Below, in pieces: positions 2,176 through 41,550 of a stretch of DNA of 64,000 bases; position 1 is the first letter of the stretch, and every line of letters starts with the position of its first letter. Source of the stretch: an uncultured Acidobacteriota bacterium (GTDB lineage: Bacteria > Acidobacteriota > Terriglobia > Acidiferrales > UBA7541); assembly GCA_963784015.1 (NCBI GenBank), contig CAWAPX010000023.1, positions 190,229 to 254,228 of the forward strand. The letters are read 5' to 3'. The notes under the pieces are model-generated. The model had not been told where the DNA came from. It searched no databases and saw only the letters and a list, made by a program, of their open reading frames with translations. Made by a program: the position numbers and the translations under genes.

Positions 2176-3141
2176 ATGCAGAAAATAGACTCTCTATCTC
2201 GGCGCGCATTTTTAGGAAAAATCTCGGTTCTAACGGCCGGTGGATTCACGGCTGCTAGCACCCTCGGCGCCATGCCAAGTCCCGAACTCGAACCACATAT
2301 CATTTTTCCTACTCATCCTCGCGAGCGGATCTGCATAGCGTCGTATCCGTTTCGTGCATACATTCTGAGCCCCGACAATCGCGATCGCGATACGACTCTT
2401 CCAGGAATGAACTTGCTCGAATTCCCTGCCCATGTCGTCGCAAAATTCAATATTCATAATATTGAGCCGCATAGCCGCCACTTCACATCGTTGCAGCCGG
2501 ACTATCTCGATGATTTCCGGCAGATTTTGCTGAAAACCAAAGTGCGCGCCGTGAATATTGCGGTAAGCACTGTCAACAGTTTCTACGACGCGGAAGCCTC
2601 TGCGCGCGAAAAGGCTGTCGACTTTGCAAAGAAGTGGGTGGATGTCGCTGTGCGTATTGGCTCTCCGGGAATCCGCACGCACATTGCCACGACGAGGAAT
2701 TCTCCCCCAAGTGTCGAACGCACCACCGAGAGCCTGCGCCAGGTGACCGAATACGCCGCAGACAAGAATATTGTCGTCACGCTTGAGAACGACGATTTAG
2801 TGAGCGAGGACGCATTCTTCCTCGCGAAGGTCATCGAGTCCGTCAACAATCCCTATCTTCGCGCTCTGCCCGATTTTGCGAATTCCATGCTGGGCGGCGA
2901 CGCCGATTTCAATTACCGAGCGCTGCAAGCGATGTTTCAGCATGCCTACAATATTTGTCACGTGAAAGACGGCGAGACAAATGATGACGACAAACAATTC
3001 AATGTGGACTTGAAGAAATCGTTCGATATTCTGAAAGCCAGCAATTATCGCGGCTATTGTTCGATGGAGTTCGACGCCCCTGGCGACCCCTACGCCCCCA
3101 CTTTGAAGTTAATCGAAGAAACCGTTAAATACCTTTCCTGA
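2176..3141 (+). CDS. TAT-exported sugar phosphate isomerase/epimerase family protein (xylose-isomerase-like TIM barrel)
   Basis: 321 aa. It has a twin-arginine signal (SRRAFLGKISVLTAGG). The body shows TIM-barrel family segments (IRTHIATT, VVTLENDD, CHVKDGE, YRGYCSMEFD). Confidence 0.8.
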   Translation: MQKIDSLSRRAFLGKISVLTAGGFTAASTLGAMPSPELEPHIIFPTHPRERICIASYPFRAYILSPDNRDRDTTLPGMNLLEFPAHVVAKFNIHNIEPHSRHFTSLQPDYLDDFRQILLKTKVRAVNIAVSTVNSFYDAEASAREKAVDFAKKWVDVAVRIGSPGIRTHIATTRNSPPSVERTTESLRQVTEYAADKNIVVTLENDDLVSEDAFFLAKVIESVNNPYLRALPDFANSMLGGDADFNYRALQAMFQHAYNICHVKDGETNDDDKQFNVDLKKSFDILKASNYRGYCSMEFDAPGDPYAPTLKLIEETVKYLS

Positions 3142-3200
3142 TCGCGCCAAGTCGCGTTAGGAGATTCAGCACTGCAGCTGGGCGCTCAAGGTTCTTCCAT

Positions 3201-4535
3201 TCAACTGACTGGCGCACGATCGCTAAATGTCTCGCTAACCGCATCCCAGTATTGCTTCTTGCCGGACCAATAAGACTCCGTCGACATCATGTTTGCAACA
3301 GAATGGGCGAACCCATCCTGCACGGTGCAATGCGGCTGCTGCCGCGAGCGCATGCACTGGAACCAGTTCGCCATGTGCTCCAGAGTTCTGTCATCAATTC
3401 CCATCGGCGGGAGTTTTGTTTCGCCGGGCGGCAGAATATATTTCGCAGGCCGCTTTTTATCGATGTCCGCGTCGTCCTCGTGATTCCCCTTCTCGTCGAC
3501 CAACTGGTATCGTGGACTGCCTTCGCCGCCAATATTCGTAAGAGTCGCCTTCTTTCCCATATACCGCGTCGAAGACGGTGCATCATTCCCAAAACTCGTC
3601 GCATAGCTCACTAGAAATCCCTTCGGGTATTCGAGCAACGCCTGGAACGTGTCCGCATTCTCCCTGCCATCGTGCCACGCAAAAATTCCGCCGTGTGCCA
3701 TCGCCGAGCGGGGGAAGCTGTCTTTCATAAACCAGTGCACGAGATCAATCGCGTGGCTCATCCATTGATCCGGAATGCCGCTGGAAAATTCCTTATACAA
3801 GCGGAACTCGCAATACACTTTCGGATCGAAAGGCCGGTTAGGCTTCGTCAACAGCCACTTGCGCCAATCCGTATCCTCTTCGCGGAGCAGTTTCGTTTCT
3901 TCGCGCCCGCGCCATCGTGGCCCGTGATAATTCCAGACGATTTCGATTTTGCTCACGTCGCCGAGGACGCCCGTCTGCACTAGATCGTGCGCGGCTATTT
4001 GATACGGCTCGCTGCGATGCTGCGTGCCGACCTGCACAATACGGTCGCTTTTTAACACCGTGTCACGCGCCGCCTTTGCTTCGGCTAATACATTGCCCAT
4101 GGGCTTTTCAACATAAGCGTCTTTGCCCGCCTCGACAGCCATCTTGAGGATCGGCGAGTGTGCATGTTCCGGCGTGGAAATGATGACTCCGTCCACGTCT
4201 TTCAATGCAAGCACGTCTTCCAAATACTGATAAGTCCGGGGCGCGCGGCCATAATATTTCGCATTGGTCGCAGCAGCTTTTTCCCGGTTCAGCTTCCACA
4301 AATCGCAGATCACCGTCATCTCGGCGTTCTGGCTCGTCTTCAGTTGCGCCACTATCCAATCCAGATCGCTACCGCGGCTGCCAGTTCCAATATGCGCCAG
4401 TGAAATGCGGTCATTCGCGCCAGCGATCCTGGCGTAGGAAAGCGCAGTACTCGGCAGCGCCGCGCCTCCGGCGATCAACGCCCCTGTCTTGCTTAAAAAC
4501 TCCCTGCGATCGATTGTTTCGTTTGTGTCGCTCAT
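3201..4535 (-). CDS. TAT-exported Gfo/Idh/MocA family oxidoreductase
   Basis: 444 aa. It has a twin-arginine signal (RREFLSKTGALIAGGAALP), an N-terminal Rossmann segment (LAHIGTGSRGS) and the family EKP motif (AYVEKPM). Confidence 0.85.
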   Translation of the reverse strand: MSDTNETIDRREFLSKTGALIAGGAALPSTALSYARIAGANDRISLAHIGTGSRGSDLDWIVAQLKTSQNAEMTVICDLWKLNREKAAATNAKYYGRAPRTYQYLEDVLALKDVDGVIISTPEHAHSPILKMAVEAGKDAYVEKPMGNVLAEAKAARDTVLKSDRIVQVGTQHRSEPYQIAAHDLVQTGVLGDVSKIEIVWNYHGPRWRGREETKLLREEDTDWRKWLLTKPNRPFDPKVYCEFRLYKEFSSGIPDQWMSHAIDLVHWFMKDSFPRSAMAHGGIFAWHDGRENADTFQALLEYPKGFLVSYATSFGNDAPSSTRYMGKKATLTNIGGEGSPRYQLVDEKGNHEDDADIDKKRPAKYILPPGETKLPPMGIDDRTLEHMANWFQCMRSRQQPHCTVQDGFAHSVANMMSTESYWSGKKQYWDAVSETFSDRAPVS

Positions 4536-4656
4536 CGTTTAACCTCCGGACCGTGATGTTCCACTCGCTCTAATTGAGTTTCAGCGGAGGCATTGTGTGG
4601 TTCGCATTGCGGCTTGTCAATCAGGCAGCTCGTTACTCAGGTCATGTGACGCCGCG

Positions 4657-4685
4657 TTGACAAGCCCACGCCTCTAGTCTTAAAT
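4657..4685 (+). promoter_or_regulatory. Candidate sigma70-type promoter for xylB (TTGACA-N17-TTAAAT)
   Basis: TTGACA sits at 4657-4662, followed by a 17-nt spacer and TTAAAT at 4680-4685. This lies in the divergent intergenic region between the Gfo/Idh/MocA gene and xylB. The call rests on pattern alone. Confidence 0.4.
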
Positions 4686-4690
4686 GTCCA

Positions 4691-4706
4691 CCGTGAACGT
4701 TCACGG
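4691..4706. promoter_or_regulatory. 16-bp perfect palindrome CCGTGAACGTTCACGG; LacI-family-type operator candidate
   Basis: A perfect dyad with a central CG, 5 nt downstream of the putative -10 and about 105 nt upstream of the xylB coding start. Its shape matches LacI/GalR operators (TGnAAnCGnTTnCA-like). Confidence 0.5.
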
Positions 4707-4812
4707 AAGCCGCTAGCTCAATTCTTATTGGCTGGCTCCTGGACCCAATTCCCTATCAAGTAAGGGCCCACGAACAGCATCTTGGGCAAGTTTTGTGTAA
4801 GAAGGAGGCCGT

Positions 4813-6330
4813 ATCCCAATCCTCGGCATCGATGTCGGAACCAGCGGAACCCGCGCCCTAATCCTCGATGAACACGGCACCGTCCTCGCCTCGGGCACCG
4901 AAGAGCACGCCAATTTCGCCAGCCCGCAACCGGGCTGGGCGGAGCAAGACCCGCGCGATTGGTGGCGCGCCGCGGCAATCGCGGTTCGCAAAGCGCTTCA
5001 GGCCTCGGGCCTCGCCGCTGAGTCCATCGCCGCCGTCGGCTTTTCCGGCCAGATGCATGGCGCCGTCCTGCTTGACGAGAATGACGAGGTCATTCGTCCC
5101 GCTCTGATTTGGTGTGACCAGCGCACCGAAGCGCAATCCAAGGAGCTCGAGCGCACCATCGGCCTTGACCGCATCATCCAGTTGACCTGCAATCCGCCGT
5201 TGACAAATTTCACTCTCACAAAGCTTCTCTGGGTCCGCGAGCACGAGCCGCAAAACTGGCAACGCGTGCGCAAAATCATGCTGCCGAAGGATTACGTCCG
5301 TTTGCGGCTGACCAGCGAATCCGCCATTGACGTCGCCGACGCTTCCGGAACACTGATGCTCGACGTAGCCCACCGCACGTGGTCGAGCGAAGTCCTCTCC
5401 AAAACTGGAATTGACGTGAAGTTGCTCCCAAAACTTTTCGAATCGCAAGATATTTGCGGAAAGCTTTCGCAAGCTGGCGCAGATGCAACCGGTCTTCGCG
5501 TGGGAACTCCGGTGGTTGCTGGCGCAGGCGATCAAGCTGCTGGAGCCGTCGGCATGGGCATCACGCGCGCCGGAGTGGTGAGCGCCACCATCGGAACTTC
5601 CGGCGTGGTTTTTGCCGCCACGGATCGGCCTTCGCTCGATCCCAAAGGCCGCCTACACACGTTCTGTCACGCCATCCCCGGCCGCTGGCACGTTATGGGA
5701 GTGACGCAAGCCGCTGGACTTTCTCTGCGCTGGTTCCGCGATCGCTTTGGTGCCGGAGCCGATGACGGTCGCGATCCCTACGAACGCATGTCCGACGAGG
5801 CCGCCACCGCTCCAGCCGGCTCAGAAGGCGCATTCTGGGCGCCGTACTTGATGGGCGAGCGCACTCCGCATCTCGATCCATTCGCACGGGCCGCGTTTGT
5901 CGGTCTTTCCGCCTCGCACACCCGCGCCGACCTCATCCGCGCCGTGCTCGAAGGGGTGGCTTACAGCCTGAAGGATACCTTCAGCATCTTCAACGAGATT
6001 CAGGTGCCCGTGGAACGCATCCGCCTCGGCGGAGGAGGCGCTCGCTCACCCCTGTGGCGGCAAATCCAAGCAGATGTCTATGCGCACGAAGTCGAAATTT
6101 TGAAAGCGGAAGAAGGCGCGGCCTATGGCGCCGCGATTCTAGCAGGCGTGGGTTCGGGATGTTGGAAGAGCGTCGATGAAGCGTGCGACGCCGTGGTGCG
6201 TGTTGCCAAGCGGGTCAGCACAAATAAAGAGAACAGCACCGCCATGCAGCGGGGTTACCAAACTTATCGCCGGATTTATCCGGCATTGCATTCCATCTTC
6301 GCTGAGGATCAATCTACCTCAGCCAACTGA
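4813..6330 (+). CDS. xylB: Xylulokinase (FGGY family)
   Basis: The track ORF starts at ATG 5053, but the same frame is open from 4801 and encodes the FGGY N-terminus ILGIDVGTSGTRALILDEHG...WWRAAA...AVGFSGQMHGAVLLD. In-frame TAA is at 4798-4800, and there is no ATG, GTG or TTG before 5053. GAAGGAGG lies at 4801-4808. I assign the start to ATC 4813 (alternative ATC 4819). C-terminal GGGARSPLWRQIQADV is typical of XylB. Confidence 0.8.
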   Translation: MPILGIDVGTSGTRALILDEHGTVLASGTEEHANFASPQPGWAEQDPRDWWRAAAIAVRKALQASGLAAESIAAVGFSGQMHGAVLLDENDEVIRPALIWCDQRTEAQSKELERTIGLDRIIQLTCNPPLTNFTLTKLLWVREHEPQNWQRVRKIMLPKDYVRLRLTSESAIDVADASGTLMLDVAHRTWSSEVLSKTGIDVKLLPKLFESQDICGKLSQAGADATGLRVGTPVVAGAGDQAAGAVGMGITRAGVVSATIGTSGVVFAATDRPSLDPKGRLHTFCHAIPGRWHVMGVTQAAGLSLRWFRDRFGAGADDGRDPYERMSDEAATAPAGSEGAFWAPYLMGERTPHLDPFARAAFVGLSASHTRADLIRAVLEGVAYSLKDTFSIFNEIQVPVERIRLGGGGARSPLWRQIQADVYAHEVEILKAEEGAAYGAAILAGVGSGCWKSVDEACDAVVRVAKRVSTNKENSTAMQRGYQTYRRIYPALHSIFAEDQSTSAN

Positions 6331-26487: not shown

Positions 26488-27979
26488 TTAGAACTTGCGG
26501 GTTTCCTGGCGCGACCAGCGCTCGACTACGATTTTGGATTCGGTGTAGAACTCGACGGCGTCGCGGCCCTGGCCGTGAAGGATGCCGAAGAAACTTTCTT
26601 TCCAGCCGCTGAAGGGAAAATACGCCATGGGCGCGGCGACGCCGATGTTGATGCCGATATTTCCAGCGGGAGCTTCGTAGCGGAATCGCCGCGCCGCGCC
26701 GCCGTTGGTCGTAAACAGAGAAGCTTGATTCCCATAGGGGCTGCGCCGGAGGAAATCCATCGCTTCATCCATGGAATCGGCGTGGACAGGCTGAGTACAG
26801 GGCCAAAATTTCAGTGTTGGCAAGCTGGCTTGTCGATGGAAGTCCGTCAAGAACTGTAGGAGTAAGGAAGCTACCGGTTTCGTGATTCGCGATCTTCGCG
26901 TTGCGGCCATCGAGAATGGCTTTCGCGCCTTCTGCTTCACCGGCGGCAATTAAAGATTCAATGCGCTTTTTGCTGTCCCCGGAAATTACGGGGCCCATTT
27001 GAACACCAGGCTCGAGCCCGTAGCCGACCTTGAGAGTTGACGCAGAGTGAGCGATAGAATCGCGAAACGATTTTTGCGCGTCGCCAATGGTGACGGCTAC
27101 AGATACGGCAAGGCAGCGTTGTCCAGCGCAGCCGAAAGCGCTGTCGCTGATGATTTGCGTGGCGAGTTCCATGTCGGCATCGGGAAGAACGATGACGTGA
27201 TTTTTTGCGCCGCCCTGGCATTGCATCCGCTTGCCGCTGGCCGCTGAGCGCATATAGACGTGCTTGGCAACGGGGGTGGAACCGACGAAACTGATCGCGC
27301 GAACTTGCGGGTGATCGCAAAGCGCGTTGACCACATCCTTGCCGCCATTGACAAGATTGACGACGCCCTTGGGCAAACCTGTTTTTTCAAGAAGTTCGAA
27401 CGCGCGGATCATGCTGAGCGGGACACGCTCGGAAGGCTTCAGCACAAACGTGTTGCCGCAAGCGATGGCGTAAGGCAGGAACCAGTAAGAGATCATCGCC
27501 GGAAAATTGAAGGGAACAATGGCAGCGACGACTCCCAGCGGCTGGCGGATTTGCATTTCGTCGACGCCCGGCGTGACGTCTTCCAGGTTGTAGCCCTGCA
27601 TCATCATGGGAATGCCGCAGGCCACTTCGACATTTTCGATACCTCGACGCAATTCCGCTTTCGCTTCGCCGAAGGTCTTGCCGTTTTCGAGAGTGATGAG
27701 GCGCGAGAGTTCGTCGATGTGCTCTTCAAGTAGATTCTTCAGCTTGAAGAGATATTGCACGCGCTCGCCCGGCGGAGTGCGTCGCCACGCAGGAAACGCG
27801 TCGGCGGCAGCCTGCACGGCCGCATCAACATCAGCAGGCGAAGACATCGGCGTACGCGCCAGAAGTTCGGTGGTCGCAGGATTAGTGACGTCGAAGAATT
27901 CGGTAGATGACGGACGGCGCCATGCGCCGTTGATGTAGTTCTGCAGTTCGGTGACTTGGGTGGTTACGGCACTGCTCAT
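26488..27979 (-). pseudogene. mmsA: Methylmalonate-semialdehyde dehydrogenase (CoA-acylating), disrupted by two 1-nt deletions
   Basis: ORF 26765..27979 is an ALDH with the catalytic region [10 protein letters not shown] and ends ...[21 protein letters not shown] 26488..26949 carries the ALDH C-terminus ([13 protein letters not shown]...GINIGVAAPMAYFPFSGWKESFFG..HGQGRDAVEFYTESKIVVERW). The conserved FGPVLSL segment is readable only in the third frame, between about 26809 and 26787. Confidence 0.75.
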
Positions 27980-32971: not shown

Positions 32972-33865
32972 TCAGTTCGAGTTTGGCTTCGTACTTGGGC
33001 TGGGCGTCGGCTTGGGAGTCTGTATGTCCGCCTTAGGTTGGATAGACTCCAGTTCGACTTCGAAGACGAGAGTCGCGTTGGGACCGATCCCACCACCGGG
33101 ACCACCGCGCGCGCCATAGGCAAGATCGGCTGGAACAAATAGTTCCCACTTTGAGCCGACGGGCATAAGCTGCAGCGCCTCTGTCCAACCTTTGATCACG
33201 CCGCTGACCGGAAATGTCGCAGGCTGGCCGCGCTTATAAGAGCTATCGAACTCCGTGTTGTCGAGCAACGTGCCTTTGTAGTTGCAGACGACGGTGTCGG
33301 TGGTTGTAGGCTTGGGACCGGTGCCTTCTTTCAGAATCTTATATTGCAGGCCACTCGGGAGCGTCACGACGCCGTCTTTCGTTTTGTTTTCCGCGAGAAA
33401 GGCATCGCCTTGCTTTTTGTTGGCCTCTCCCTGGATGAGCATTTTCTCTTCACCCTTTTTGCGCAGGTCCGCCTGCAGTGCGACCATCGCGGTTTTGGCT
33501 TCCTCGTCTGTCAGCAGCGGTTTGGCCCCAGACAACCCATCTTTCATGCCGCGAAGGAGAATGTTGGGGTCAACGTCGACGGAATCCTTGTGCATGCTTT
33601 TGCCGATATTCAAACCGATGGCGTAGCTCGCTTTGTCTTTCTGGGTTTTGAGCGTCAGCACGGTTGGTGTGGTTGGTTTTTTCGCGGCCGTGGTACCTGG
33701 TTTCGCCGCGGGGGTCTTGGGAGCCGTTGTTCCCGGAGTCTGTGAGGAGCTCGCCGGGGGAGTTTGTGGAGCGCTTGACGCGGGAGTCTGCTGTGCTTGC
33801 GCATAGCCAAGGACAAGCACGCCCGCCGCGAATGCTGTTACTGCTAAAGTGAGTGTTTTTCGCAT
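32972..33865 (-). CDS. FKBP-type peptidyl-prolyl isomerase (FkpA/Mip-like), secreted
   Basis: 297 aa. It has a signal peptide, a Pro/Thr/Ala-rich linker, an FKBP_N dimerisation helix and the FKBP domain (VVCNYKGTLLDNTEFDSSY...GVIKGWTEALQLMPVGSKWELFVPADLAYG). Confidence 0.9.
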   Translation of the reverse strand: MRKTLTLAVTAFAAGVLVLGYAQAQQTPASSAPQTPPASSSQTPGTTAPKTPAAKPGTTAAKKPTTPTVLTLKTQKDKASYAIGLNIGKSMHKDSVDVDPNILLRGMKDGLSGAKPLLTDEEAKTAMVALQADLRKKGEEKMLIQGEANKKQGDAFLAENKTKDGVVTLPSGLQYKILKEGTGPKPTTTDTVVCNYKGTLLDNTEFDSSYKRGQPATFPVSGVIKGWTEALQLMPVGSKWELFVPADLAYGARGGPGGGIGPNATLVFEVELESIQPKADIQTPKPTPSPSTKPNSN

Positions 33866-34003
33866 GGATATATTGTCACACTGGTTCGGCGTCTCTGCAA
33901 ACCACGTTTATACGGCTAAAAGTGTAAATGGTTAATGAGCAGCGCGCGAACTCTCTCCAAGTAGCGGCCGCACTAGGCAATTCCGCGAACTTGCAGTATG
34001 TTG

Positions 34004-34018
34004 AGAATTGACAATTCT
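34004..34018. promoter_or_regulatory. 7-1-7 inverted repeat AGAATTG-A-CAATTCT overlapping a TTGACA -35-like hexamer upstream of yggX
   Basis: A perfect 15-bp palindrome that extends to 17 of 19 positions over 34002-34020. TTGACA lies at 34008-34013. The architecture matches Fur-family boxes, but the sequence does not match any consensus I know. Confidence 0.35.
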
Positions 34019-34096
34019 GATGAGGTGATTCAAATGGCGAATGAGTCTTGCGATCCAGTTCCGGCTCCGAGTGAGCCAGCGAAGCCCGGGGCACGC

Positions 34097-34366
34097 ATGG
34101 TGATGTGCGTGAAATTCGGCAAGGAGTTGCCGGGTCTGGACCGCATTCCGTGGACGGGCGAACTTGGAAAGCGCGTTTACGAGAGCGTGTCGAAGGATGC
34201 ATGGAAGCTCTGGATTGAGCATTCCAAAATGATCATGAACGAATACCGGCTGAATCCTATGGATCCCAATTCACAAAAAATTATGGGAGAGCAGTTGGAA
34301 GAGTTTTTCTTTGGCGCCGGCGCAAAACTGCCCGAAGGTTACGTAGCTCCCAAAGCCAAAGGCTAG
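34097..34366 (+). CDS. yggX: Oxidative damage protection protein / Fe(II)-trafficking protein YggX
   Basis: From ATG 34097: MVMCVKFGKELPGLDRIPWTGELGKRVYESVSKDAWKLWIEHSKMIMNEYRLNPMDPNSQKIMGEQLEEFFFG. This is colinear with E. coli YggX (..PGELGKRIYNEISKEAW..). The track start 33998 and ATG 34034 add non-family residues. Confidence 0.8.
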   Translation: MVMCVKFGKELPGLDRIPWTGELGKRVYESVSKDAWKLWIEHSKMIMNEYRLNPMDPNSQKIMGEQLEEFFFGAGAKLPEGYVAPKAKG

Positions 34367-34462
34367 AAGCTTTCGTCTCGACCACACCTCTGTAGGGGCG
34401 GGCCTTGTTTACCCTGAGCTGCGAAGGGACCCGCCCGACGCGCCGACCACCACAAATCCCGG

Positions 34463-35764
34463 TTAATCAACGACGGATGGCAGGCGCCCCGTCGCGGGAT
34501 GTTCGACAGGCAGCCGCGGTGCTAATCCAAAGCTCAATCTAGCGTGAGCTGAGCGGAGGGCTGCCTCCACTTCCTCCGCGCTCTTGCTCGACGCAAATAA
34601 AAACCCCAGGTAGCTCGATCCTTCGGGCCATGCGGCGATGTAGTCATGCAGGCGCGCGGTGATTTCGAGCGCGGTAATTCCCGGCGTGCTGCGGGCGGCT
34701 TCGTCTCCTTCGATTTTTTCGAGGATGCCGCTCTTGGGAACAGGAATCATCATCACGCCGCTAGCGGATTGCTCGCGAGGCCAATCGCTGCCGGGCAGGC
34801 GGAGGGCGTGGCGCAACAGCAATTCTTCGAGGCCAATGGTTTGGCTTCTTGCATCTGGCGCAAAACGCAGTGCCCGCGCGCACAGGCCGCCGATCGGACG
34901 CGGCGCAACTTCCAGCGGCCAAACGCCCTCGTCATTTATACGGAACTCTGTGTGGACCGGCCCCTGCGATAGTCCGAGCGCGCGAACCGCATCCACCGCG
35001 CAGCGTTCGATCTCGCGCTGCTGTGCTCCGTCGAGGCGCGAGGGTGTTACATAGATTGTTTCTTCGAAATACGGACCTTCGAGTGGATCCGGTTTGTCAA
35101 AAATCGCTAGGACGCGCAGCTCGCCATCGGTAAGCAATCCTTCCACTGCTACTTCCCTGCCGGGAATGTATCCTTCAACGAGAATCTGATCGAGATTGGG
35201 CTCGCGCGTCGCTCGGATTTCTGGTGATTCCAACAAACGACGGATTCGCGTGGCGGCGGCGATAAATTCTTCGCGCGAATTTGCACGAACGACGCCTTGG
35301 CTGGCCGAGAGTGAGAGTGGCTTTGCAACACAAGGATACGTAATGCCTAGTAGTGACGGTTCAGGTGTGGGAGTGAGCGAAATCGAGCGAAACCAAGGCA
35401 CATGCAAGCCAGCCTCGCGAAATACTTCGCGCATGCGGAGTTTGCTGCGGGAGGCTTCGATGGCAGCAGGATGGTTGTAAAGAATGCCCAAGCCGCGCGC
35501 GACATAGGCCGCTGAAACGGCAGGACGGTCGCCGAGCGCAAGAATTCCATCAACATTTTGGCCGCGCACCGATTGCAGAACCGCATAGGCTGCCGCGTCT
35601 GGCGTCTCGAAATGGACGGGGATAGCGCGATCGCCCCACGGATCATCTAGTTGGTGGCAGCGATCCGTGACAAAAACAAGGTCAACTCCGAGCTTGCGTG
35701 CCGCTTCGTCGAAGCTGCGTGTCTGATAGCCAAGTTTGGCGGTGAAGATGAGGAGTCGCGACAT
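34463..35764 (-). CDS. ATP-grasp domain-containing ligase (unknown substrate)
   Basis: ATG 35764 gives MSRLLIFTAKLGYQTRSFDEAARKLGVDLVFV... (433 aa). ATP-grasp segments are YPCVAKPLSLSASQGV, ILVEGYIPGREVAVEG and GPVHTEFRINDEGVWPLEVAPRPIGG. It lies 29 nt downstream of the radical SAM gene on the same strand. The track start 35989 would overlap that gene. Confidence 0.8.
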   Translation of the reverse strand: MSRLLIFTAKLGYQTRSFDEAARKLGVDLVFVTDRCHQLDDPWGDRAIPVHFETPDAAAYAVLQSVRGQNVDGILALGDRPAVSAAYVARGLGILYNHPAAIEASRSKLRMREVFREAGLHVPWFRSISLTPTPEPSLLGITYPCVAKPLSLSASQGVVRANSREEFIAAATRIRRLLESPEIRATREPNLDQILVEGYIPGREVAVEGLLTDGELRVLAIFDKPDPLEGPYFEETIYVTPSRLDGAQQREIERCAVDAVRALGLSQGPVHTEFRINDEGVWPLEVAPRPIGGLCARALRFAPDARSQTIGLEELLLRHALRLPGSDWPREQSASGVMMIPVPKSGILEKIEGDEAARSTPGITALEITARLHDYIAAWPEGSSYLGFLFASSKSAEEVEAALRSAHARLSFGLAPRLPVEHPATGRLPSVVD

Positions 35765-35793
35765 TTTTATTTTGCAGGGCCCCGGGCTTGTCT

Positions 35794-37314
35794 CTAGACG
35801 TAGCTGCCGGGGGCCGGTATTGGTTCTTCCATTTTCTTTGCGACTTGGCCGATGGACACAAACTGTTCTCGCGTGGGCTCGGCGCAGCAATACCACGGCT
35901 CGCTCAGAAAAGGGACAGCGGCTGCGGGCGCGTCCGATGATTGAGAAATTCGAACATCGAGTCCAGCGGCGGTGTGCGCCGCTTTCCAAATGCGCTCGAA
36001 GACTATCGAGCGAGACTCTTTTCGGCGATCACCTTCCGCCGCAATGGCTTGTACGGTTTCGCTGAGCACATCGACTCGAGGGTCGACATGCTTCCAGGGA
36101 TAAAAGAGCGATTCGGGATCAAATGGTCCGACGTTGCTCCTCACTTCGTCCAATTCCAAGAGACGCGAACCCTCGGGAATGAGCAAGCGAATGCCAAGCT
36201 GGATAGGCGCGACATTTTCCATCAAGGACTCAGCGCGGATTACCAGCAACAGATCAAGATAACTTTCCATCGTGGTCCATTGGGTGAACGGCACGAATGT
36301 CGGGTGAAGAATCATGCCGAGGGCGCGGAAAGCATGCACGACATGCAGAAAATCTTCGCGCGTATGGCCTTTGTCGAGAGCATTAAGCACGGCATCATCC
36401 AAATATTCCACGGCGCTAATGACAAAGAGGCAGCCGGTTTCCTTTAGCTTAGGCACGTACGCTTCGTATTTCTTCAGATGCTCGATTTTTATCGTGACGT
36501 CGTAGGTCACGTTGGGAAATTCGCGGTGGAATTCTTCGACGAGCTCCATCGCGTGACGAATGCCATTGAAGAAGTCTGGATCACCGAACGAAATGTGTTG
36601 CGCGCCAGCGACAACCTGCTGGCGGATGTCCTGCATCACGACGTCGCGGCTGACGATGCGAAACACTCCTTTGTAAACGGGGACTATGGGGCAGTGGCGG
36701 CAAAGATGTTTGCAGCCGCGGCTGGCTTCCGTTGAGCCGACGAGGCGGAATCCGCCGCCGGGAATAATAAGATGAGCGTATTTGCCGATGGGCGGCAAAT
36801 ACGAGCGGTCCGGAACCTGAAAGGCGAGACGTTCAAGCGAGATGAGGGGCTCTGGTTGTGGTGAAACTTCGGAGCGATCTTCGCTTTCCAAGCGAGCTTG
36901 CAGGCGCTCAGCGAGTTGCGTAAGTTCTTGCTCGAATTCGCCGCCAAGGATGGTTCCAACGCCAAGCGTTCGCAGATAATCCACGTTCATGGGCGCGTAA
37001 AGGCCATAACAACACAATTCAGCCAGTGGATTCAGTTCGCGCAAGGTGGGAATAAGTTTTGCAGCAAGACGTGTGGCCGTATGCATAGGCAAGTAAATCG
37101 CGATTAATTCGGCAGAGCGAATCGCGGATTCATCGAGCGATTGGCGGGAAAGATCCAGGCACACCACATCGTGCCCGCTTTTGCGGAGCCACGTTGCCGG
37201 CGACGCGAGTCCAAATGGCTGTCGCCCCAACTCGTACGTCGAAATCAGAACGATATTCACGTGTTCAACAGTATAGCTGGCCGTCCGCCGTAAAGAATCG
37301 TTTTCGGTTATCAT
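35794..37314 (-). CDS. B12-binding-domain radical SAM protein with C-terminal CCAEP motif
   Basis: The N-terminal Rossmann-like segment is VNIVLISTYELGRQPFGLASPATWLRKSGHDVVCLDL. The radical SAM CxxxCxxC (C-KHL-C-RH-C) is encoded at 36691-36714. The C-terminal ...SEPWYCCAEPTREQ is encoded at 35875-35889, and both Cys codons are TGC. I choose ATG 37314 because the track start 37383 would overlap the divergent acnA start. Confidence 0.85.
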   Translation of the reverse strand: MITENDSLRRTASYTVEHVNIVLISTYELGRQPFGLASPATWLRKSGHDVVCLDLSRQSLDESAIRSAELIAIYLPMHTATRLAAKLIPTLRELNPLAELCCYGLYAPMNVDYLRTLGVGTILGGEFEQELTQLAERLQARLESEDRSEVSPQPEPLISLERLAFQVPDRSYLPPIGKYAHLIIPGGGFRLVGSTEASRGCKHLCRHCPIVPVYKGVFRIVSRDVVMQDIRQQVVAGAQHISFGDPDFFNGIRHAMELVEEFHREFPNVTYDVTIKIEHLKKYEAYVPKLKETGCLFVISAVEYLDDAVLNALDKGHTREDFLHVVHAFRALGMILHPTFVPFTQWTTMESYLDLLLVIRAESLMENVAPIQLGIRLLIPEGSRLLELDEVRSNVGPFDPESLFYPWKHVDPRVDVLSETVQAIAAEGDRRKESRSIVFERIWKAAHTAAGLDVRISQSSDAPAAAVPFLSEPWYCCAEPTREQFVSIGQVAKKMEEPIPAPGSYV

Positions 37315-37349
37315 AAAGGGCTGATGAACTGACGGAAAGGACGGCGAGA

Positions 37350-40016
37350 ATGGCCATTGCCGCAGGGAATTCTTTCGGAACACGCGACAAACTGAACGTT
37401 GGCGCGCAATCGTTTGATATTCACCGGCTCGAGGTGCTTGAGAAAAAAATCTCCTGCAATTTATCGAAGCTGCCTTTTTCCCTCCGTATCCTTCTCGAAA
37501 ATCTTTTGCGCTGCGAGGACGGGCGCTTTGTCCGGCCGGACGATATCAAGTTCCTCGCCAACTGGGCGCCGGGAGCCGCGGAAAAAGAAATCGCTTTCAT
37601 GCCGGCGCGGGTGCTGCTTCAGGACTTTACGGGCGTGCCCGCGGTGGTGGATCTGGCTACGATGCGCGAAGCCATCAAACGCATGGGCGGCAATCCGCGG
37701 CTGATCAATCCTCTCTTCCCTGCTGAGTTGGTCATCGACCATTCTGTGCAAGTCGACAGCTTCGGCAGCGCAAACGCTTTTGGTTTGAACGCCGAACTGG
37801 AATTCCAGCGCAACATTGAGCGCTACGCTTTTCTGCGCTGGGGGGCGACCGCGTTTCAAAATTTCAAGGTAGTGCCGCCGGACACCGGCATCTGCCATCA
37901 AGTGAATCTCGAATATCTTGCGCGCGTGGTATGCGCGATGCCTTCGGGAAGCAGAGTTGAAGCTTACCCGGATTCCGTTGTGGGCACGGATTCACACACG
38001 ACGATGGTGAACGCTCTCGGCGTGTTTGGCTGGGGCGTGGGAGGAATCGAAGCAGAGGCCGCGATGCTTGGCCAGCCGTCTTCGATGCTCATCCCTGACG
38101 TCGTTGGTTTCCGCTTGCACGGAAAACTTAGCGAAGGCGCCACCGCGACGGATTTGGTTTTGACCGTAACGGAAATGCTGCGCAAGAAGGGTGTCGTCGG
38201 CAAATTTGTGGAGTTCTGCGGCACTGGCCTTTCGAGCTTGAGTGTGCCGGACCGCGCGACAATTGCGAACATGGCGCCGGAATATGGCGCGACGATGGGC
38301 TTCTTCCCTGTCGACGAAGAGACACTCGCGTATTTGCAATTCACGGCGCGCGGAGCTGAACAGATTGCGCTCGTCGAAGCGTATTGCAAAGAGCAAATGT
38401 TGTTCCGCACGGATGACATGGCGGATCCGATCTTCAGCGATAAGCTGGAGCTGGATTTGAGCACCGTGGAACCGACCGTCGCCGGACCGAAGCGCCCGCA
38501 GGATCGTGTATCGCTGCGCAACGCCAAGAGTTCCTTCACGAAAGTTGTGGAAGGAACGCCGGATAAACATGTGGCCGTGAAGAATAACGGCGACTCGTTT
38601 GATCTATCGAGCGGCGCAGTAGTGATTGCGGCGATCACGAGTTGCACAAACACTTCGAATCCTTCGCTCATGCTGGGCGCGGGTCTGCTCGCAAAGAAAG
38701 CGGTGGAGCGCGGCTTGCAGGCAAAACCGTGGGTCAAGACGAGTCTCGCGCCGGGTTCGAAAGTTGTGACGGATTATCTGGATGCTTCGGGATTGACGAA
38801 GTATCTCGACAAACTAAATTTTCATCTAGTCGGCTACGGATGCACGACATGCATCGGCAACAGTGGGCCGTTGCCCGAAGCGATTGGCGCGGCGATCAAG
38901 GACAACAATCTGGTGGCTGTAGCTGTGCTCAGCGGTAATCGAAATTTTGAAGGACGCATTCACCCGCTCGTGCGTGCAAACTATTTGGCTTCGCCGCCGC
39001 TCGTCGTGGCATACGCTCTTGCCGGGCGCATGGACTTGGATTTGACGACCGAATCGCTCGGCAATGATTCCGCAGGGAAGCCGGTTTATCTGCGTGACAT
39101 CTGGCCGACGCCGCAGGAAATTGAATCCACGGTACGCGCTTCCGTGACCAGCGAGATGTACGCGAAAGAATACGCCAACGTGTACGAGGGCGACGCACAT
39201 TGGAAATCCATGCCTGTTCCCGAAGGCGACTTGTACAAATGGGATGCGAAGTCCACGTACATTAAACAGCCCCCATTTTTTGAAAATATGCCGAAGACGC
39301 CGCCGGCCCTTGCGGATATTCATGCGGCGCGTGTCCTCGCCATTCTCGGCGACAGCGTAACTACCGATCACATTTCACCGGCGGGATCGATCCCAGTCGA
39401 TTCGCCCGCGGGAAAATATCTGATCGCGAACGGTGTGAAGCCGCACGAGTTCAATTCCTATGGAGCGCGGCGCGGCAATCACGAAGTAATGATGCGTGGA
39501 ACTTTTGCGAACATCCGCCTGCGTAATCAACTCGCTCCCGGAACCGAAGGATGCTGGACGCTCTACCTGCCGGGTAACGAGAAGATGACGATTTATGACG
39601 CCGCAGTGAAATATCGCGAAGGAGGAGTGGCGCTGGTCGTTCTGGCCGGTAAAGAGTACGGCTCGGGATCTTCGCGCGACTGGGCGGCCAAAGGGACTCG
39701 TTTGCTCGGCGTGCGCGCTGTGATTGCGGAAAGTTACGAGCGCATCCATCGAAGCAATTTGGTTGGCATGGGCGTGCTGCCGCTGGAATTTAAAGCTGGC
39801 GAAAATCGCGAAACACTTGGATTGACTGGACAAGAGATCTTTGAGATCGAAGGCGTCGCGTCGCTCTCGCCGAAGAAGGTCGTCAGCGTCCGCGCTCAGT
39901 CCGGCGACGGCTCAACAAAAGCGTTTACTGCGATCGCTCGCGTCGATACCCCAGAAGAAGTCTCCTACTACCATCACGGCGGCATCTTGCAGTACGTTCT
40001 GCGGCAGATGCTCTGA
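37350..40016 (+). CDS. acnA: Aconitate hydratase A
   Basis: 888 aa and colinear with AcnA/IRP-type aconitases. It carries VGTDSHTTM, the Fe-S ligand region [10 protein letters not shown]...[10 protein letters not shown], and the swivel domain with [10 protein letters not shown]. Confidence 0.95.
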
Positions 40017-40146: not shown

Positions 40147-41550
40147 TTAAGTACGTCCTTCGCGCTTTTGCGCTACCACTAAACCTCGCGGCGTAGGCAA
40201 TAGAAGAACGGACAGCAGGCCTTCTGCCTCTAGCTTGAGCGCGCCTTCTCGAACTGTTTTCATCAATGAACTTGCGTCGTGCATCAGGATGAGGCCGTGC
40301 GGATTCATTTGCGGAAGAAACTTGCGAACTTCCTGCTCGCGCAGCGGGGCGTCGCTATCGCAGAAGAGAAGATCGATGCGGCCTTCGACTTTCATGTCCA
40401 AGCTGGACTCGTTGCGAGCGTCAATCCATTCGCCGAGGCCGGAAGAATTGAAACGCTGCCGCGCTAGGGCGAAGACTTTCGCGTCGTACTCGCAAGTAAT
40501 GACGCGTCCGAAACCGTTGGCTTTCAGGCCTTCGGCGAGGCGCAGCGTACTGAGGCCGGAAAATGTGCCGGTCTCCACGATCAGCTCCGGCTTGATCGTC
40601 GTGACGACTGCTTTCAGAAAATCGAGGACTTCGACTTCGGCGCTCATCGAATCGTACATGTGCCAGCGCTCGGGATGCGGACACTCTGGTGTGGGGCGGT
40701 GATATTCGGGCTGAAGGACATCGCCGCTCGACGCGATGTGCTCTACGATGCGGTGCTCTTTTTTCTGGCGGTGGAATTGGCTTTTAATACGCCAAAGTAA
40801 CACCGCGCCAAGCAGGATCGAAAATACGCTTGCCGTTTGAGCATTGGACATGCCGAAAAACGAACGCGGATTGATTCGGATGAATTCAATGAGGAAGCGG
40901 GCGACGCCAGTGAGAATCAGGTAATTGCAGAAAATTTCACCTTTGGCTTTGGGACCCTTGAGGGATTTTGTGCCCATGTGCCAAAGAAACGCGGCAATCC
41001 CCAGCCAGATAAAAAACTCGTACAGCGGAGTGGGGTGCACGCGCTGCGTCGTGGGAACGAGCCCGTTCGGAAAACTCATGCCCCAGGGCAGCGAAGTCGG
41101 AATGCCGTAATCTCCATCGCCGGAGAGCAAGCAGCCGATTCGCCCTATGGCGTAGCCTACGCATGCGGCAGGCGCACAGATGTCCAGAAATTCGAGAACC
41201 GGAATCTTTACCCATCGCGCCAAAATTATCAGAGCGATGAAGCCGCCGAGAAATCCGCCGAACCAGGCGAAACCGTAGCGGCTGATGAGCTGCGGCCAGG
41301 GGTCCGCGAAAAACTCGTGCGGACTTTCGAGAACGTGGTAAAGCCGCGCGCCGACCAGACCTGCGAGTCCCGCGATTCCAATGATCAGGAATCCTTCGTC
41401 CTTTTCATTTCTGGCGGCAATGCTCTTGAGCTGCGATCTGCGGCGATTGAAATCGGCCTGCAAGACATAGGCAGCGGTGAGCATGCCGAGGGCAACCATC
41501 AACCCAAAAGTGGGAATGGCTAGAGGTCCTAGATGGAGGAAAGGGATCAT
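40147..41550 (-). CDS. Prolipoprotein diacylglyceryl transferase (Lgt) family domain fused to a class I SAM-dependent methyltransferase domain
   Basis: 467 aa. Residues 1 to ~270 are polytopic and Lgt-like (MIPFLHLGPLAIPTFGLMVALG..., GRIGCLLSGDGDYG, HPTPLYEF). Residues ~300 to 467 are a soluble O-methyltransferase-like fold (ELIVETGTFSGLSTLRLAEGL...RVITCEYD...IDLLFCDSD...GLILMHD). Confidence 0.8.
   Translation of the reverse strand: MIPFLHLGPLAIPTFGLMVALGMLTAAYVLQADFNRRRSQLKSIAARNEKDEGFLIIGIAGLAGLVGARLYHVLESPHEFFADPWPQLISRYGFAWFGGFLGGFIALIILARWVKIPVLEFLDICAPAACVGYAIGRIGCLLSGDGDYGIPTSLPWGMSFPNGLVPTTQRVHPTPLYEFFIWLGIAAFLWHMGTKSLKGPKAKGEIFCNYLILTGVARFLIEFIRINPRSFFGMSNAQTASVFSILLGAVLLWRIKSQFHRQKKEHRIVEHIASSGDVLQPEYHRPTPECPHPERWHMYDSMSAEVEVLDFLKAVVTTIKPELIVETGTFSGLSTLRLAEGLKANGFGRVITCEYDAKVFALARQRFNSSGLGEWIDARNESSLDMKVEGRIDLLFCDSDAPLREQEVRKFLPQMNPHGLILMHDASSLMKTVREGALKLEAEGLLSVLLLPTPRGLVVAQKREGRT

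Follow-up and report, generated by a model that had tools for sequence, protein, structure and literature searches.

A conserved radical SAM–ligase gene pair with iron–sulfur neighbors in an uncultured Acidobacteriota bacterium: a CCAEP-tail relative of ArsL

What might a bacterium make with a radical S-adenosylmethionine (SAM) enzyme that carries two adjacent cysteines near its C terminus, together with an ATP-grasp ligase encoded directly behind it? This question is raised by a 64,000-nt stretch of DNA (contig CAWAPX010000023.1, positions 190,229 to 254,228; hereafter the window) from an uncultured Acidobacteriota bacterium. Open reading frame (ORF) calling places the radical SAM gene at 35794..37314 on the minus strand (ATG start, 506 aa, stop TAG at 35796..35794). 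After a 29-nt spacer (35765..35793), the ATP-grasp gene follows on the same strand (34463..35764, ATG start, 433 aa), as seen from ORF calling and Pfam matches. Given the shared strand, the two genes are probably one operon. The initial annotation had described them as an uncharacterized two-gene cassette with a B12-binding N-terminus and a redox-active tail. Its statements on ORFs, coordinates, motifs and gaps were all right, except that the interval given for the tail (35875-35889) spans CCAEP only, with W-Y starting from 35895.

The radical SAM protein matches NCBIfam model NF040546, the 'CUAEP/CCAEP-tail radical SAM (seleno)protein', at 610 bits, compared to a cut-off of 500, and so bears out the family name given in the initial annotation. 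Residues 21-485 of the protein align with model positions 1-466 of 468, and the tail motif is present. Judged by its sequence, the window protein is a full member of NF040546 and has the Cys form. The radical SAM motif CxxxCxxC is read directly from the sequence (C201-K-H-L-C205-R-H-C208; 36691..36714, minus strand), as is the tail, W474-Y-C476-C477-A-E-P480 (35875..35895, minus strand), in which both Cys codons are TGC. Among 50 diverse members of the family, CxxxCxxC is invariant, as are E472, W474 and C476 within a conserved tail, L-[ST]-E-x-W-[FY]-C-[CU]-A-E-P. The only invariant cysteines in this set are the CxxxCxxC triad and C476, to which position 477 adds either Cys or selenocysteine (Sec); H207 and H317 are invariant and H78 nearly so. 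An AlphaFold2 model (mean predicted local distance difference test score of 92 overall, 74-86 across the tail) starts with a Rossmann-like domain of five strands, continues with the radical SAM core and ends in a helical domain.

The family has many members: 1.8 billion cluster representatives, searched exhaustively, gave 3294 matches at E≤1e-3 and 599 at E≤1e-30, with relatives encoded in thousands of metagenomic sequences, ocean-metagenome (Tara) contigs among them. Hosts are mostly Acidobacteriota and also include Chloroflexota, Methylomirabilota, Nonomuraea, Rhodospirillales and Acidiferrobacterales. One published paper names the CUAEP/CCAEP-tail family as uncharacterized and notes that the rare Cys-Sec dipeptide is also seen in heavy-metal-handling proteins.

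According to the initial annotation, the second tail cysteine is replaced by Sec in some species, and this proved to be so in most. Among the 150 best representatives, 45 contain W[FY]CC[AS]EP, and another 38 stop precisely at '...W[FY]C', the pattern that gene calls cut at UGA would give. The codon itself, read in 80 species genomes, is TGA in 51, TGC in 22 and TGT in 7 (Sec in about 64%); in these genomes, in-frame AEP[TS]xxQ (AEPTxxQ) is kept after TGA. Each of the 49 distinct TGA alleles has a hairpin of 6-8 bp resembling a Sec insertion sequence (SECIS) that starts 13-16 nt beyond the UGA, with GU present in its loops (AGUU, AGUUG, AGGUC). RNAalifold recovered only three pairs from the 51 TGA alleles, because two sub-families have hairpin registers offset by one base; in its place we compared folds sequence by sequence. 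Mean folding energy is -11.0 kcal/mol for TGA alleles versus -3.7 kcal/mol for 29 Cys alleles (Mann-Whitney p=1e-12), and the hairpin is weak or absent in the latter. The corresponding segment of the window folds at -3.6 kcal/mol, equivalent to no SECIS. A tRNA search that covers the window and not the rest of the genome found tRNA-Arg only and no tRNA-Sec, which fits the Cys form. NF040546 is a genuine Sec/Cys family, and the window carries its Cys form.

Which characterized enzyme does this protein most resemble? The second-best NCBIfam match is the ArsL model NF040542 (272 bits, E=1e-80, full length), and the next family scores 36 bits. Over residues 18-429, the window protein shares 31% identity with P0389, a representative above the ArsL cut-off (477 bits) whose sequence ends KRCCIKC. 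On these sequence comparisons, ArsL is by far the closest characterized family. ArsL is a CxxxCxxC radical SAM enzyme that cuts SAM at the Cγ–S bond, forms an organometallic species of iron with SAM's 3-amino-3-carboxypropyl (ACP) moiety, and moves this group onto arsenite held by the cysteines of a C-terminal RCCLKC motif, creating the C–As bond of arsinothricin. In vitro, it requires only SAM and a reductant. So far it is the sole radical SAM enzyme whose CxxxCxxC motif is canonical and for which cleavage of SAM 'the wrong way' has been demonstrated, and its discoverers predicted more.

The window protein shares with ArsL a three-part architecture, the CxxxCxxC core and vicinal cysteines that lie beyond this core, in a conserved motif of the C-terminal part. 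The two tails differ in kind: that of ArsL is a terminal RCCLKC with three cysteines, whereas the W[FY]C[CU]AEP tail of the CUAEP family offers two ligands, one of them Sec in most species. Distribution differs as well, with the CUAEP family encoded in at least 593 of the species genomes scanned versus 147 sequences cited for the ArsL family. In the one ArsL-family locus examined (L171), the neighbors are methyltransferases, a major facilitator superfamily permease and an acetyltransferase, whereas the partners of CUAEP genes are a ligase and iron–sulfur (Fe–S) carriers, as detailed below. The window protein is not ArsL itself: it misses the cut-off, its tail differs, H78, H207 and H317 are mismatched against the one ArsL-family sequence aligned, and its gene context is different. 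We also considered an arsenic or antibiotic island and rejected it, as no ars-like, exporter or resistance cluster is found among the conserved neighbors.

The second gene adds a further clue. Its product matches the Pfam domains ATPgrasp_N (E=9e-8), ATP-grasp_4 (E=3e-33) and LAL_C2 (E=8e-14), and its nearest solved structure is the L-amino-acid ligase (LAL) BL00235 (3VOT), with a full-length alignment over residues 18-406 (E=7e-37); the match to BacD/YwfE is weaker (E=3e-10). The Lys of VxKP, HxExR, RxIGG and the Glu residues that make up the nucleotide and Mg sites are invariant in 15 orthologues of about 44-55% identity. Domain set, full-length alignment and catalytic residues are thus common to the window ligase, BL00235 and BacD/YwfE, although similarity is distant, and no curated NCBIfam cut-off is reached (best PRK02186, 121 bits vs 625). 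These sequence features place the protein in the LAL class, and it can be predicted to form an amide bond at the expense of ATP. The products of BL00235 are Met-Gly and Met-Met, and its N-terminal substrate is therefore an ACP-type amino acid; at this divergence, the analogy gives a mild hint that such an amino acid may be used here too. Known LALs have no radical SAM partner or Fe–S carrier neighbors reported in the sources covered. By the evidence of NF040546 at 610 bits, the Pfam domain matches and the invariant nucleotide/Mg residues, neither ORF of the pair is a chance ORF.

To what extent is the pair conserved? We assembled one set anchored on the radical SAM gene, consisting of 89 non-redundant loci (80 species genomes plus 9 more distant members), and another anchored on the ligase, consisting of 80 metagenome contigs whose ligases are 47-63% identical to the Rhodospirillales orthologue. 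Within 3 kb of the radical SAM gene, 58/89 loci have a ligase gene, so the adjacency seen in the window holds in related genomes and beyond, in several gene orders and phyla. The order is radical SAM–ligase in Acidobacteriota and Rhodospirillales, yggX–radical SAM–ligase in Methylomirabilota and in L066 (loci are cited by handle where they need to be told apart), and radical SAM–DUF169–ligase in L038, L042, L043 and L045; the ligase is convergent with the radical SAM gene in L064, L067 and L086 and precedes it in L089. Taken over Acidobacteriota, Methylomirabilota, Rhodospirillales and other groups, the gene orders number at least five, and descent of a single block cannot account for the pairing. 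Viewed from the ligase, a radical SAM gene is present in 29/80 contigs; where the contig extends 1.6 kb or more upstream of the ligase, the count is 21 of 46. Whether the radical SAM protein has Sec or Cys is independent of the presence of the ligase (36/55 vs 22/34).

Fe–S genes are the other recurrent neighbors. In the window, yggX (33998..34366, plus strand), encoding an Fe(2+)-trafficking/oxidative-damage protection protein of family PF04362, is convergent with the ATP-grasp gene and matches NF003817 at 121 bits (cut-off 74). The initial annotation had treated it as a mere flank of the two-gene cassette, a view that the wider comparison corrects. In 55/89 loci, including non-syntenic orders (yggX–radical SAM–ligase), yggX is no further than 3 kb from the radical SAM gene. 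It is found directly upstream of the radical SAM gene in lineages without a nearby acnA, and overlaps the radical SAM start by 4 nt in four distant loci. yggX is a conserved partner and is probably part of the functional neighborhood; elsewhere, Fe–S carriers replace or join it. At least one Fe or Fe–S trafficking gene is present in 60/89 radical SAM-anchored loci, with Nfu in 4, ErpA in 3 and ApbC in 1. Nfu or NfuA is encoded directly up- or downstream of the radical SAM gene in L068, L079, L082 and L085, and an A-type carrier is encoded nearby in L079, L083 and L085. In the 80 ligase-anchored contigs, the commonest neighbor is Nfu (35), ahead of the radical SAM gene itself, ErpA (13) and a CDGSH Fe–S protein (10), typical orders being radical SAM–Nfu–ligase and ligase–ErpA–Nfu–radical SAM.

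The clearest single example of the Fe–S link comes from the Acidobacteriota genome GCA_025054955.1 (L085:4059-11041), in which a CCAEP radical SAM gene is part of a one-strand series ErpA–ApbC/Mrp–DUF971 (GBBH-like_N)–radical SAM–Nfu–DUF169–aconitase. The aconitase gene there is different from acnA and lies downstream of the radical SAM gene on the same strand. In the window, acnA, which encodes the [4Fe-4S] enzyme aconitase, is an ORF at 37350..40016 (plus strand, ATG at 37350), divergent from the radical SAM gene. acnA is adjacent in 40/89 loci, mostly within one Acidobacteriota synteny block, and aconitase is possibly linked to the module in function. A review describes NfuA and ErpA as an oxidation-resistant route of cluster delivery, reports that NfuA rebuilds the sacrificed cluster of lipoyl synthase LipA, and notes that low-molecular-weight thiols (bacillithiol, gshA) interact genetically with nfu/sufA and yggX. 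LipA and MiaB, which work with NfuA, exemplify the kind of tie between a radical SAM enzyme and Nfu/ErpA-type carriers that gene neighborhood suggests here; unlike them, the CUAEP family conserves no auxiliary-cluster cysteines. In one metagenomic lineage (L107, L108, L116, L117, L121, L125 and L127, at about 2900-3300 in each; also L120:387-605), the gene for an 88-aa CDGSH protein (PF09360) is divergent just upstream of radical SAM–Nfu–ligase, and a conserved 95-aa ORF with no Pfam match is also present.

Another recurrent neighbor, often between the radical SAM and ligase genes, encodes a DUF169 protein (PF02596). It occurs in the fetched flanks of 12 radical SAM-anchored loci (L038, L042, L043, L045, L047, L051, L053, L069, L073, L074, L077 and L085), within 3 kb in 11, and in the metagenome loci L113, L122, L156, L162 and L164. 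The literature holds weak hints on DUF169, namely its occurrence near HgcA-like genes in Nitrospina and its co-listing with YedE. In a Pyrinomonadaceae metagenome-assembled genome (JAICGZ010000062.1; L069:8001-12282), a Sec-type CUAEP radical SAM gene leads into a same-strand series of DUF169, CpaM, a 'corrinoid protein-associated methyltransferase' (NF043040, 245 bits vs 180), and an HgcAB-like fusion (NF043039, 332 bits vs 285) that contains VWCAAGGG. This single locus echoes a published remark that CU motifs accompany organometal chemistry. Methyltransferases were considered as a general partner and set aside: such genes are near the radical SAM gene in L061/L065, L069, L081 and L088 without being homologous to one another, and the CpaM of L069 alone reaches a curated family. 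Pterin-4a dehydratase, present in only 5/80 loci, was rejected likewise.

Two further arrangements were seen. In a JGI metagenome contig (Ga0613061_000456; L089:181-7401), the LAL gene and then a Sec-type radical SAM gene are divergent from selD (TIGR00476, 324 bits), which is accompanied by genes for an FAD-dependent disulfide reductase (RclA/MerA-like) and EgtB (481 bits); a second, truncated EgtB-like gene with the same Pfam domains lies at the locus edge, and a histidine-biosynthesis operon lies on the other side. In the more distant clade (L081, L086, L087 and L090, about 4600-6004 in each), the translationally coupled genes yggX and radical SAM are in every case divergent from a gene of formyltransferase type (Formyl_trans_N, about 320-350 aa), an arrangement that may be lineage synteny.

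How might these parts work together? The module is real and undescribed, and in the literature searched we found neither the LAL partner, nor the link to Fe–S carriers, nor the sister relation to ArsL as a mechanistic lead. Its mechanism is another matter: beyond the binding of a [4Fe-4S] cluster and SAM by the one enzyme and ATP-dependent amide-bond formation by the other, every chemical step is one that we infer. By analogy with ArsL, we tentatively favor an ArsL-like transfer to an acceptor on the CC/CU tail, then dipeptide ligation, with Fe–S carriers maintaining the enzyme; we regard this scheme as possible, short of probable. The [4Fe-4S] cluster of the CxxxCxxC motif would bind SAM and cleave it reductively, as follows from the family. 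Were the cut to fall at the Cγ–S bond as in ArsL, it would yield an ACP radical or an Fe-ACP species plus methylthioadenosine. The ACP species may then be caught by a soft nucleophilic acceptor held on C476-C477 (Cys-Sec in most species), with a metalloid or chalcogen species as candidate acceptors. The product would be an amino acid resembling methionine or glutamate, a γ-hetero-substituted 2-aminobutanoate. The LAL enzyme, probably co-transcribed, would activate either this product or a partner amino acid as an acyl-phosphate, and a dipeptide would result. YggX here, and Nfu/NfuA, ErpA, ApbC or CDGSH proteins elsewhere, with which association is observed, may supply or repair a cluster that is oxygen-labile or damaged in turnover, in hosts that are mostly aerobic soil bacteria.

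The canonical alternative is that the enzyme generates a 5'-deoxyadenosyl radical, possibly with cobalamin bound N-terminally in the manner of class-B methylases, and alters a free amino acid, that the Cys-Cys/Cys-Sec tail serves as an H-atom donor or as a redox pair for resolving the radical on the product, and that the LAL enzyme builds the altered amino acid into a dipeptide; we consider this somewhat doubtful. The exchange of Sec for Cys is typical of redox-active catalytic residues, and a vicinal Cys-Sec pair resembles the tail of thioredoxin reductase. The architecture is also suggestive, and to this extent the 'B12-binding' N-terminus of the initial annotation stands: the class-B enzymes TsrM, OxsB, TokK, CysS and MgmA, along with AprD4, share the overall fold of an N-terminal Rossmann-like domain plus core. 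Foldseek ranked AprD4 first, followed by TsrM, OxsB and MgmA and then MiaB, with RimO also among the matches; E values for TsrM, OxsB, MgmA, CysS and TokK range from 1e-9 to 1e-15. These structural matches have TM-scores of 0.5-0.63 (query-normalized) and about 13-18% sequence identity, with no curated cut-off reached, and a sequence search of the Protein Data Bank (PDB) with the family profile gave weak core matches only. Neither the profile search nor Foldseek matched an ArsL structure in the PDB copies covered. Many homologues have weak precomputed hits to PF02310, the B12-binding domain, yet the window protein has no PF02310 match at E≤0.01. The HpnJ, HpnR, PhpK and BchE models score 15-37 bits (cut-offs 360-650) and in the core region only, compared to 272 bits over the full length for ArsL, and by NCBIfam profiles the protein belongs to no class-B methylase family (HpnP/HpnR/HpnJ/BchE/PhpK). 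No characterized family lacking a CC tail was thus assigned. The top structural match, AprD4, is not known to bind cobalamin. A class-B-like architecture need not mean cobalamin, because ArsL has the same architecture and works without it; cobalamin is probably dispensable here. As for the 'redox-active tail' proposed earlier, the CC/CU tail is indeed conserved, but the kinship to ArsL had been overlooked, and since ArsL is by far the closest characterized relative, an acceptor-binding tail is at least as likely.

Could the Fe–S genes be partners in a common task instead of servants of the radical SAM enzyme? In that case the module itself would act in iron or Fe–S homeostasis, making a thiol-, selenol- or metal-binding dipeptide or processing sulfur or iron; its product, with YggX, Nfu, ErpA, ApbC and CDGSH proteins, would protect or rebuild clusters such as that of aconitase under oxidative or soft-metal stress. 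Fe and Fe–S trafficking genes are indeed the commonest neighbors from both anchors, some ligase loci have ErpA–Nfu and no radical SAM gene (see below), aconitase is adjacent in two unrelated arrangements, and ATP-grasp ligases build glutathione-type thiols, a class of compounds with the genetic ties to nfu/sufA and yggX mentioned above. We nonetheless judge such a role unlikely: a radical SAM step has no precedent in thiol-cofactor or Fe–S carrier pathways of this kind, and radical SAM enzymes are typical clients of NfuA/ErpA, which is a simpler account of the adjacency. Moreover, in the Chloroflexota, Bryobacterales and Nonomuraea loci, neither the ligase nor YggX, Nfu, ErpA or ApbC was detected in flanks of up to 8 kb. 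That the pair modifies a ribosomal peptide or protein (in the manner of ribosomally synthesized and post-translationally modified peptides, or RiPPs) and uses its ATP-grasp enzyme for a peptide or macrocyclic linkage is very improbable. Radical SAM and ATP-grasp enzymes are paired in some RiPP pathways, and some lineages have small conserved neighbors, namely Nfu (93 aa) and CDGSH (88 aa). However, the gaps of 29, 35 and 96 nt are too short for a precursor gene; clustering of ORFs over the 80 genome and 80 metagenome loci (160 in all) found no conserved small novel ORF beside the pair except known Fe–S proteins; and the ligase, whose N- and C-terminal domains are those specific to LALs, gives a full-length alignment with a free-amino-acid ligase. 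The lack of room for a precursor-sized ORF and the LAL type of the ligase together favor a small-molecule amino-acid substrate over a RiPP, in keeping with the view of the initial annotation that a classical RiPP is less likely. There is hardly any chance that the adjacency is inherited synteny of one clade without functional meaning. A single block, acnA / radical SAM–ligase / yggX, does account for 43/80 genome loci, all within Acidobacteriota, but orders and orientations differ elsewhere (yggX–radical SAM–ligase; radical SAM–DUF169–ligase; radical SAM–Nfu–ligase; ligase–ErpA–Nfu–radical SAM; convergent; ligase–radical SAM) and the pair recurs in other phyla at 40-57% identity. The rearranged orders already contradict such an account.

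Several observations weigh against ArsL-like transfer followed by ligation. In 31/89 loci, there is no ligase within 3 kb, and the product of the radical SAM enzyme must therefore be useful by itself; Chloroflexota, Bryobacterales and Nonomuraea are examples of hosts with the radical SAM gene and no ligase nearby. Conversely, L099 and L103 contain ligase–ErpA–Nfu, with the radical SAM gene absent from the 5 kb fetched to either side; a tie between the ligase and Fe–S carriers may be independent of the radical SAM enzyme. With 272 bits, the window protein falls well short of the ArsL cut-off of 450. Its tail has two thiol/selenol ligands, not three, and it lies ~30 residues from the C-terminus, whereas that of ArsL is terminal: WYCCAEP precedes 26 further residues in the window protein and about 10-30 in the family. 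H78, H207 and H317 are mismatched in a pairwise alignment with one ArsL-family sequence. The module sits in a housekeeping-like context unlike that of a metabolite cluster, free of the arsM-type methyltransferase, the exporter and the self-resistance acetyltransferase that are found around the one ArsL-family locus examined. Where SAM is cleaved is not readable from sequence, and the literature searched contains no experiment on any CUAEP/CCAEP family member.

The layout of the locus leaves some room in the start of the radical SAM gene. Candidates are GTG at 37383 (529 aa), ATG at 37314 (506 aa) and GTG at 37260 (488 aa). Both conservation in the family and confidence of the model set in at about residue 19, and close homologues of 484-488 aa are numerous, making GTG 37260 as plausible a start as ATG 37314. 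The GTG at 37383 would overlap the region of the divergent acnA start codon. With the ATG, 35 nt separate the radical SAM gene from acnA, such that at least one promoter must sit within coding region; 96 nt separate the ATP-grasp stop from the end of yggX (34366). Scans of 33800-37700 for promoters and terminators gave nothing above shuffled expectation. Other neighbors of the module in the window are FKBP, HAD, zwf and glk. Two more distant genes of the window are also unusual. A methylmalonate-semialdehyde-dehydrogenase-like gene (26488-27979, minus strand) is broken over two overlapping frames, with Aldedh profile positions 1-369 in ORF 26765..27979 and 377-461 in ORF 26488..26949, indicating a frameshift (pseudogene or assembly error). 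The gene for Lgt (40147-41550, minus strand; prolipoprotein diacylglyceryl transferase, residues 5-253) carries a fused C-terminal class-I O-methyltransferase-like domain (Methyltransf_24 / Methyltransf_3, residues about 300-425).

What does this locus mean for the family? The gene adds one more member to a family already catalogued and is to that extent nothing new; the combination described here differs from ArsL in tail, partners and context. As a sister of ArsL that is far more widespread and has Sec in most species, the CUAEP family is an obvious place to look for more ArsL-type enzymes. A bolder extension, which we offer as speculation with little likelihood of being right in full, is that CUAEP/CCAEP proteins form a large, mostly Sec-dependent second branch of ArsL-type enzymes, which would transfer the aminocarboxypropyl group of SAM to an acceptor other than arsenite (sulfur, selenium or another soft metal(loid), for instance) on the Cys-Sec tail and, with the ligase dedicated to them, give a novel thiol, selenol or organometalloid dipeptide with physiological ties to the protection or repair of Fe–S clusters in aerobic soil bacteria. 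The neighborhood provides a testable two-enzyme reaction, a tail to mutate and a physiological axis (YggX, Nfu, ErpA, aconitase, oxidative or soft-metal stress). A role of the neighboring genes in Fe–S maintenance would explain how dominant soil Acidobacteriota keep an oxygen-sensitive enzyme, with dedicated Fe–S genes beside it.

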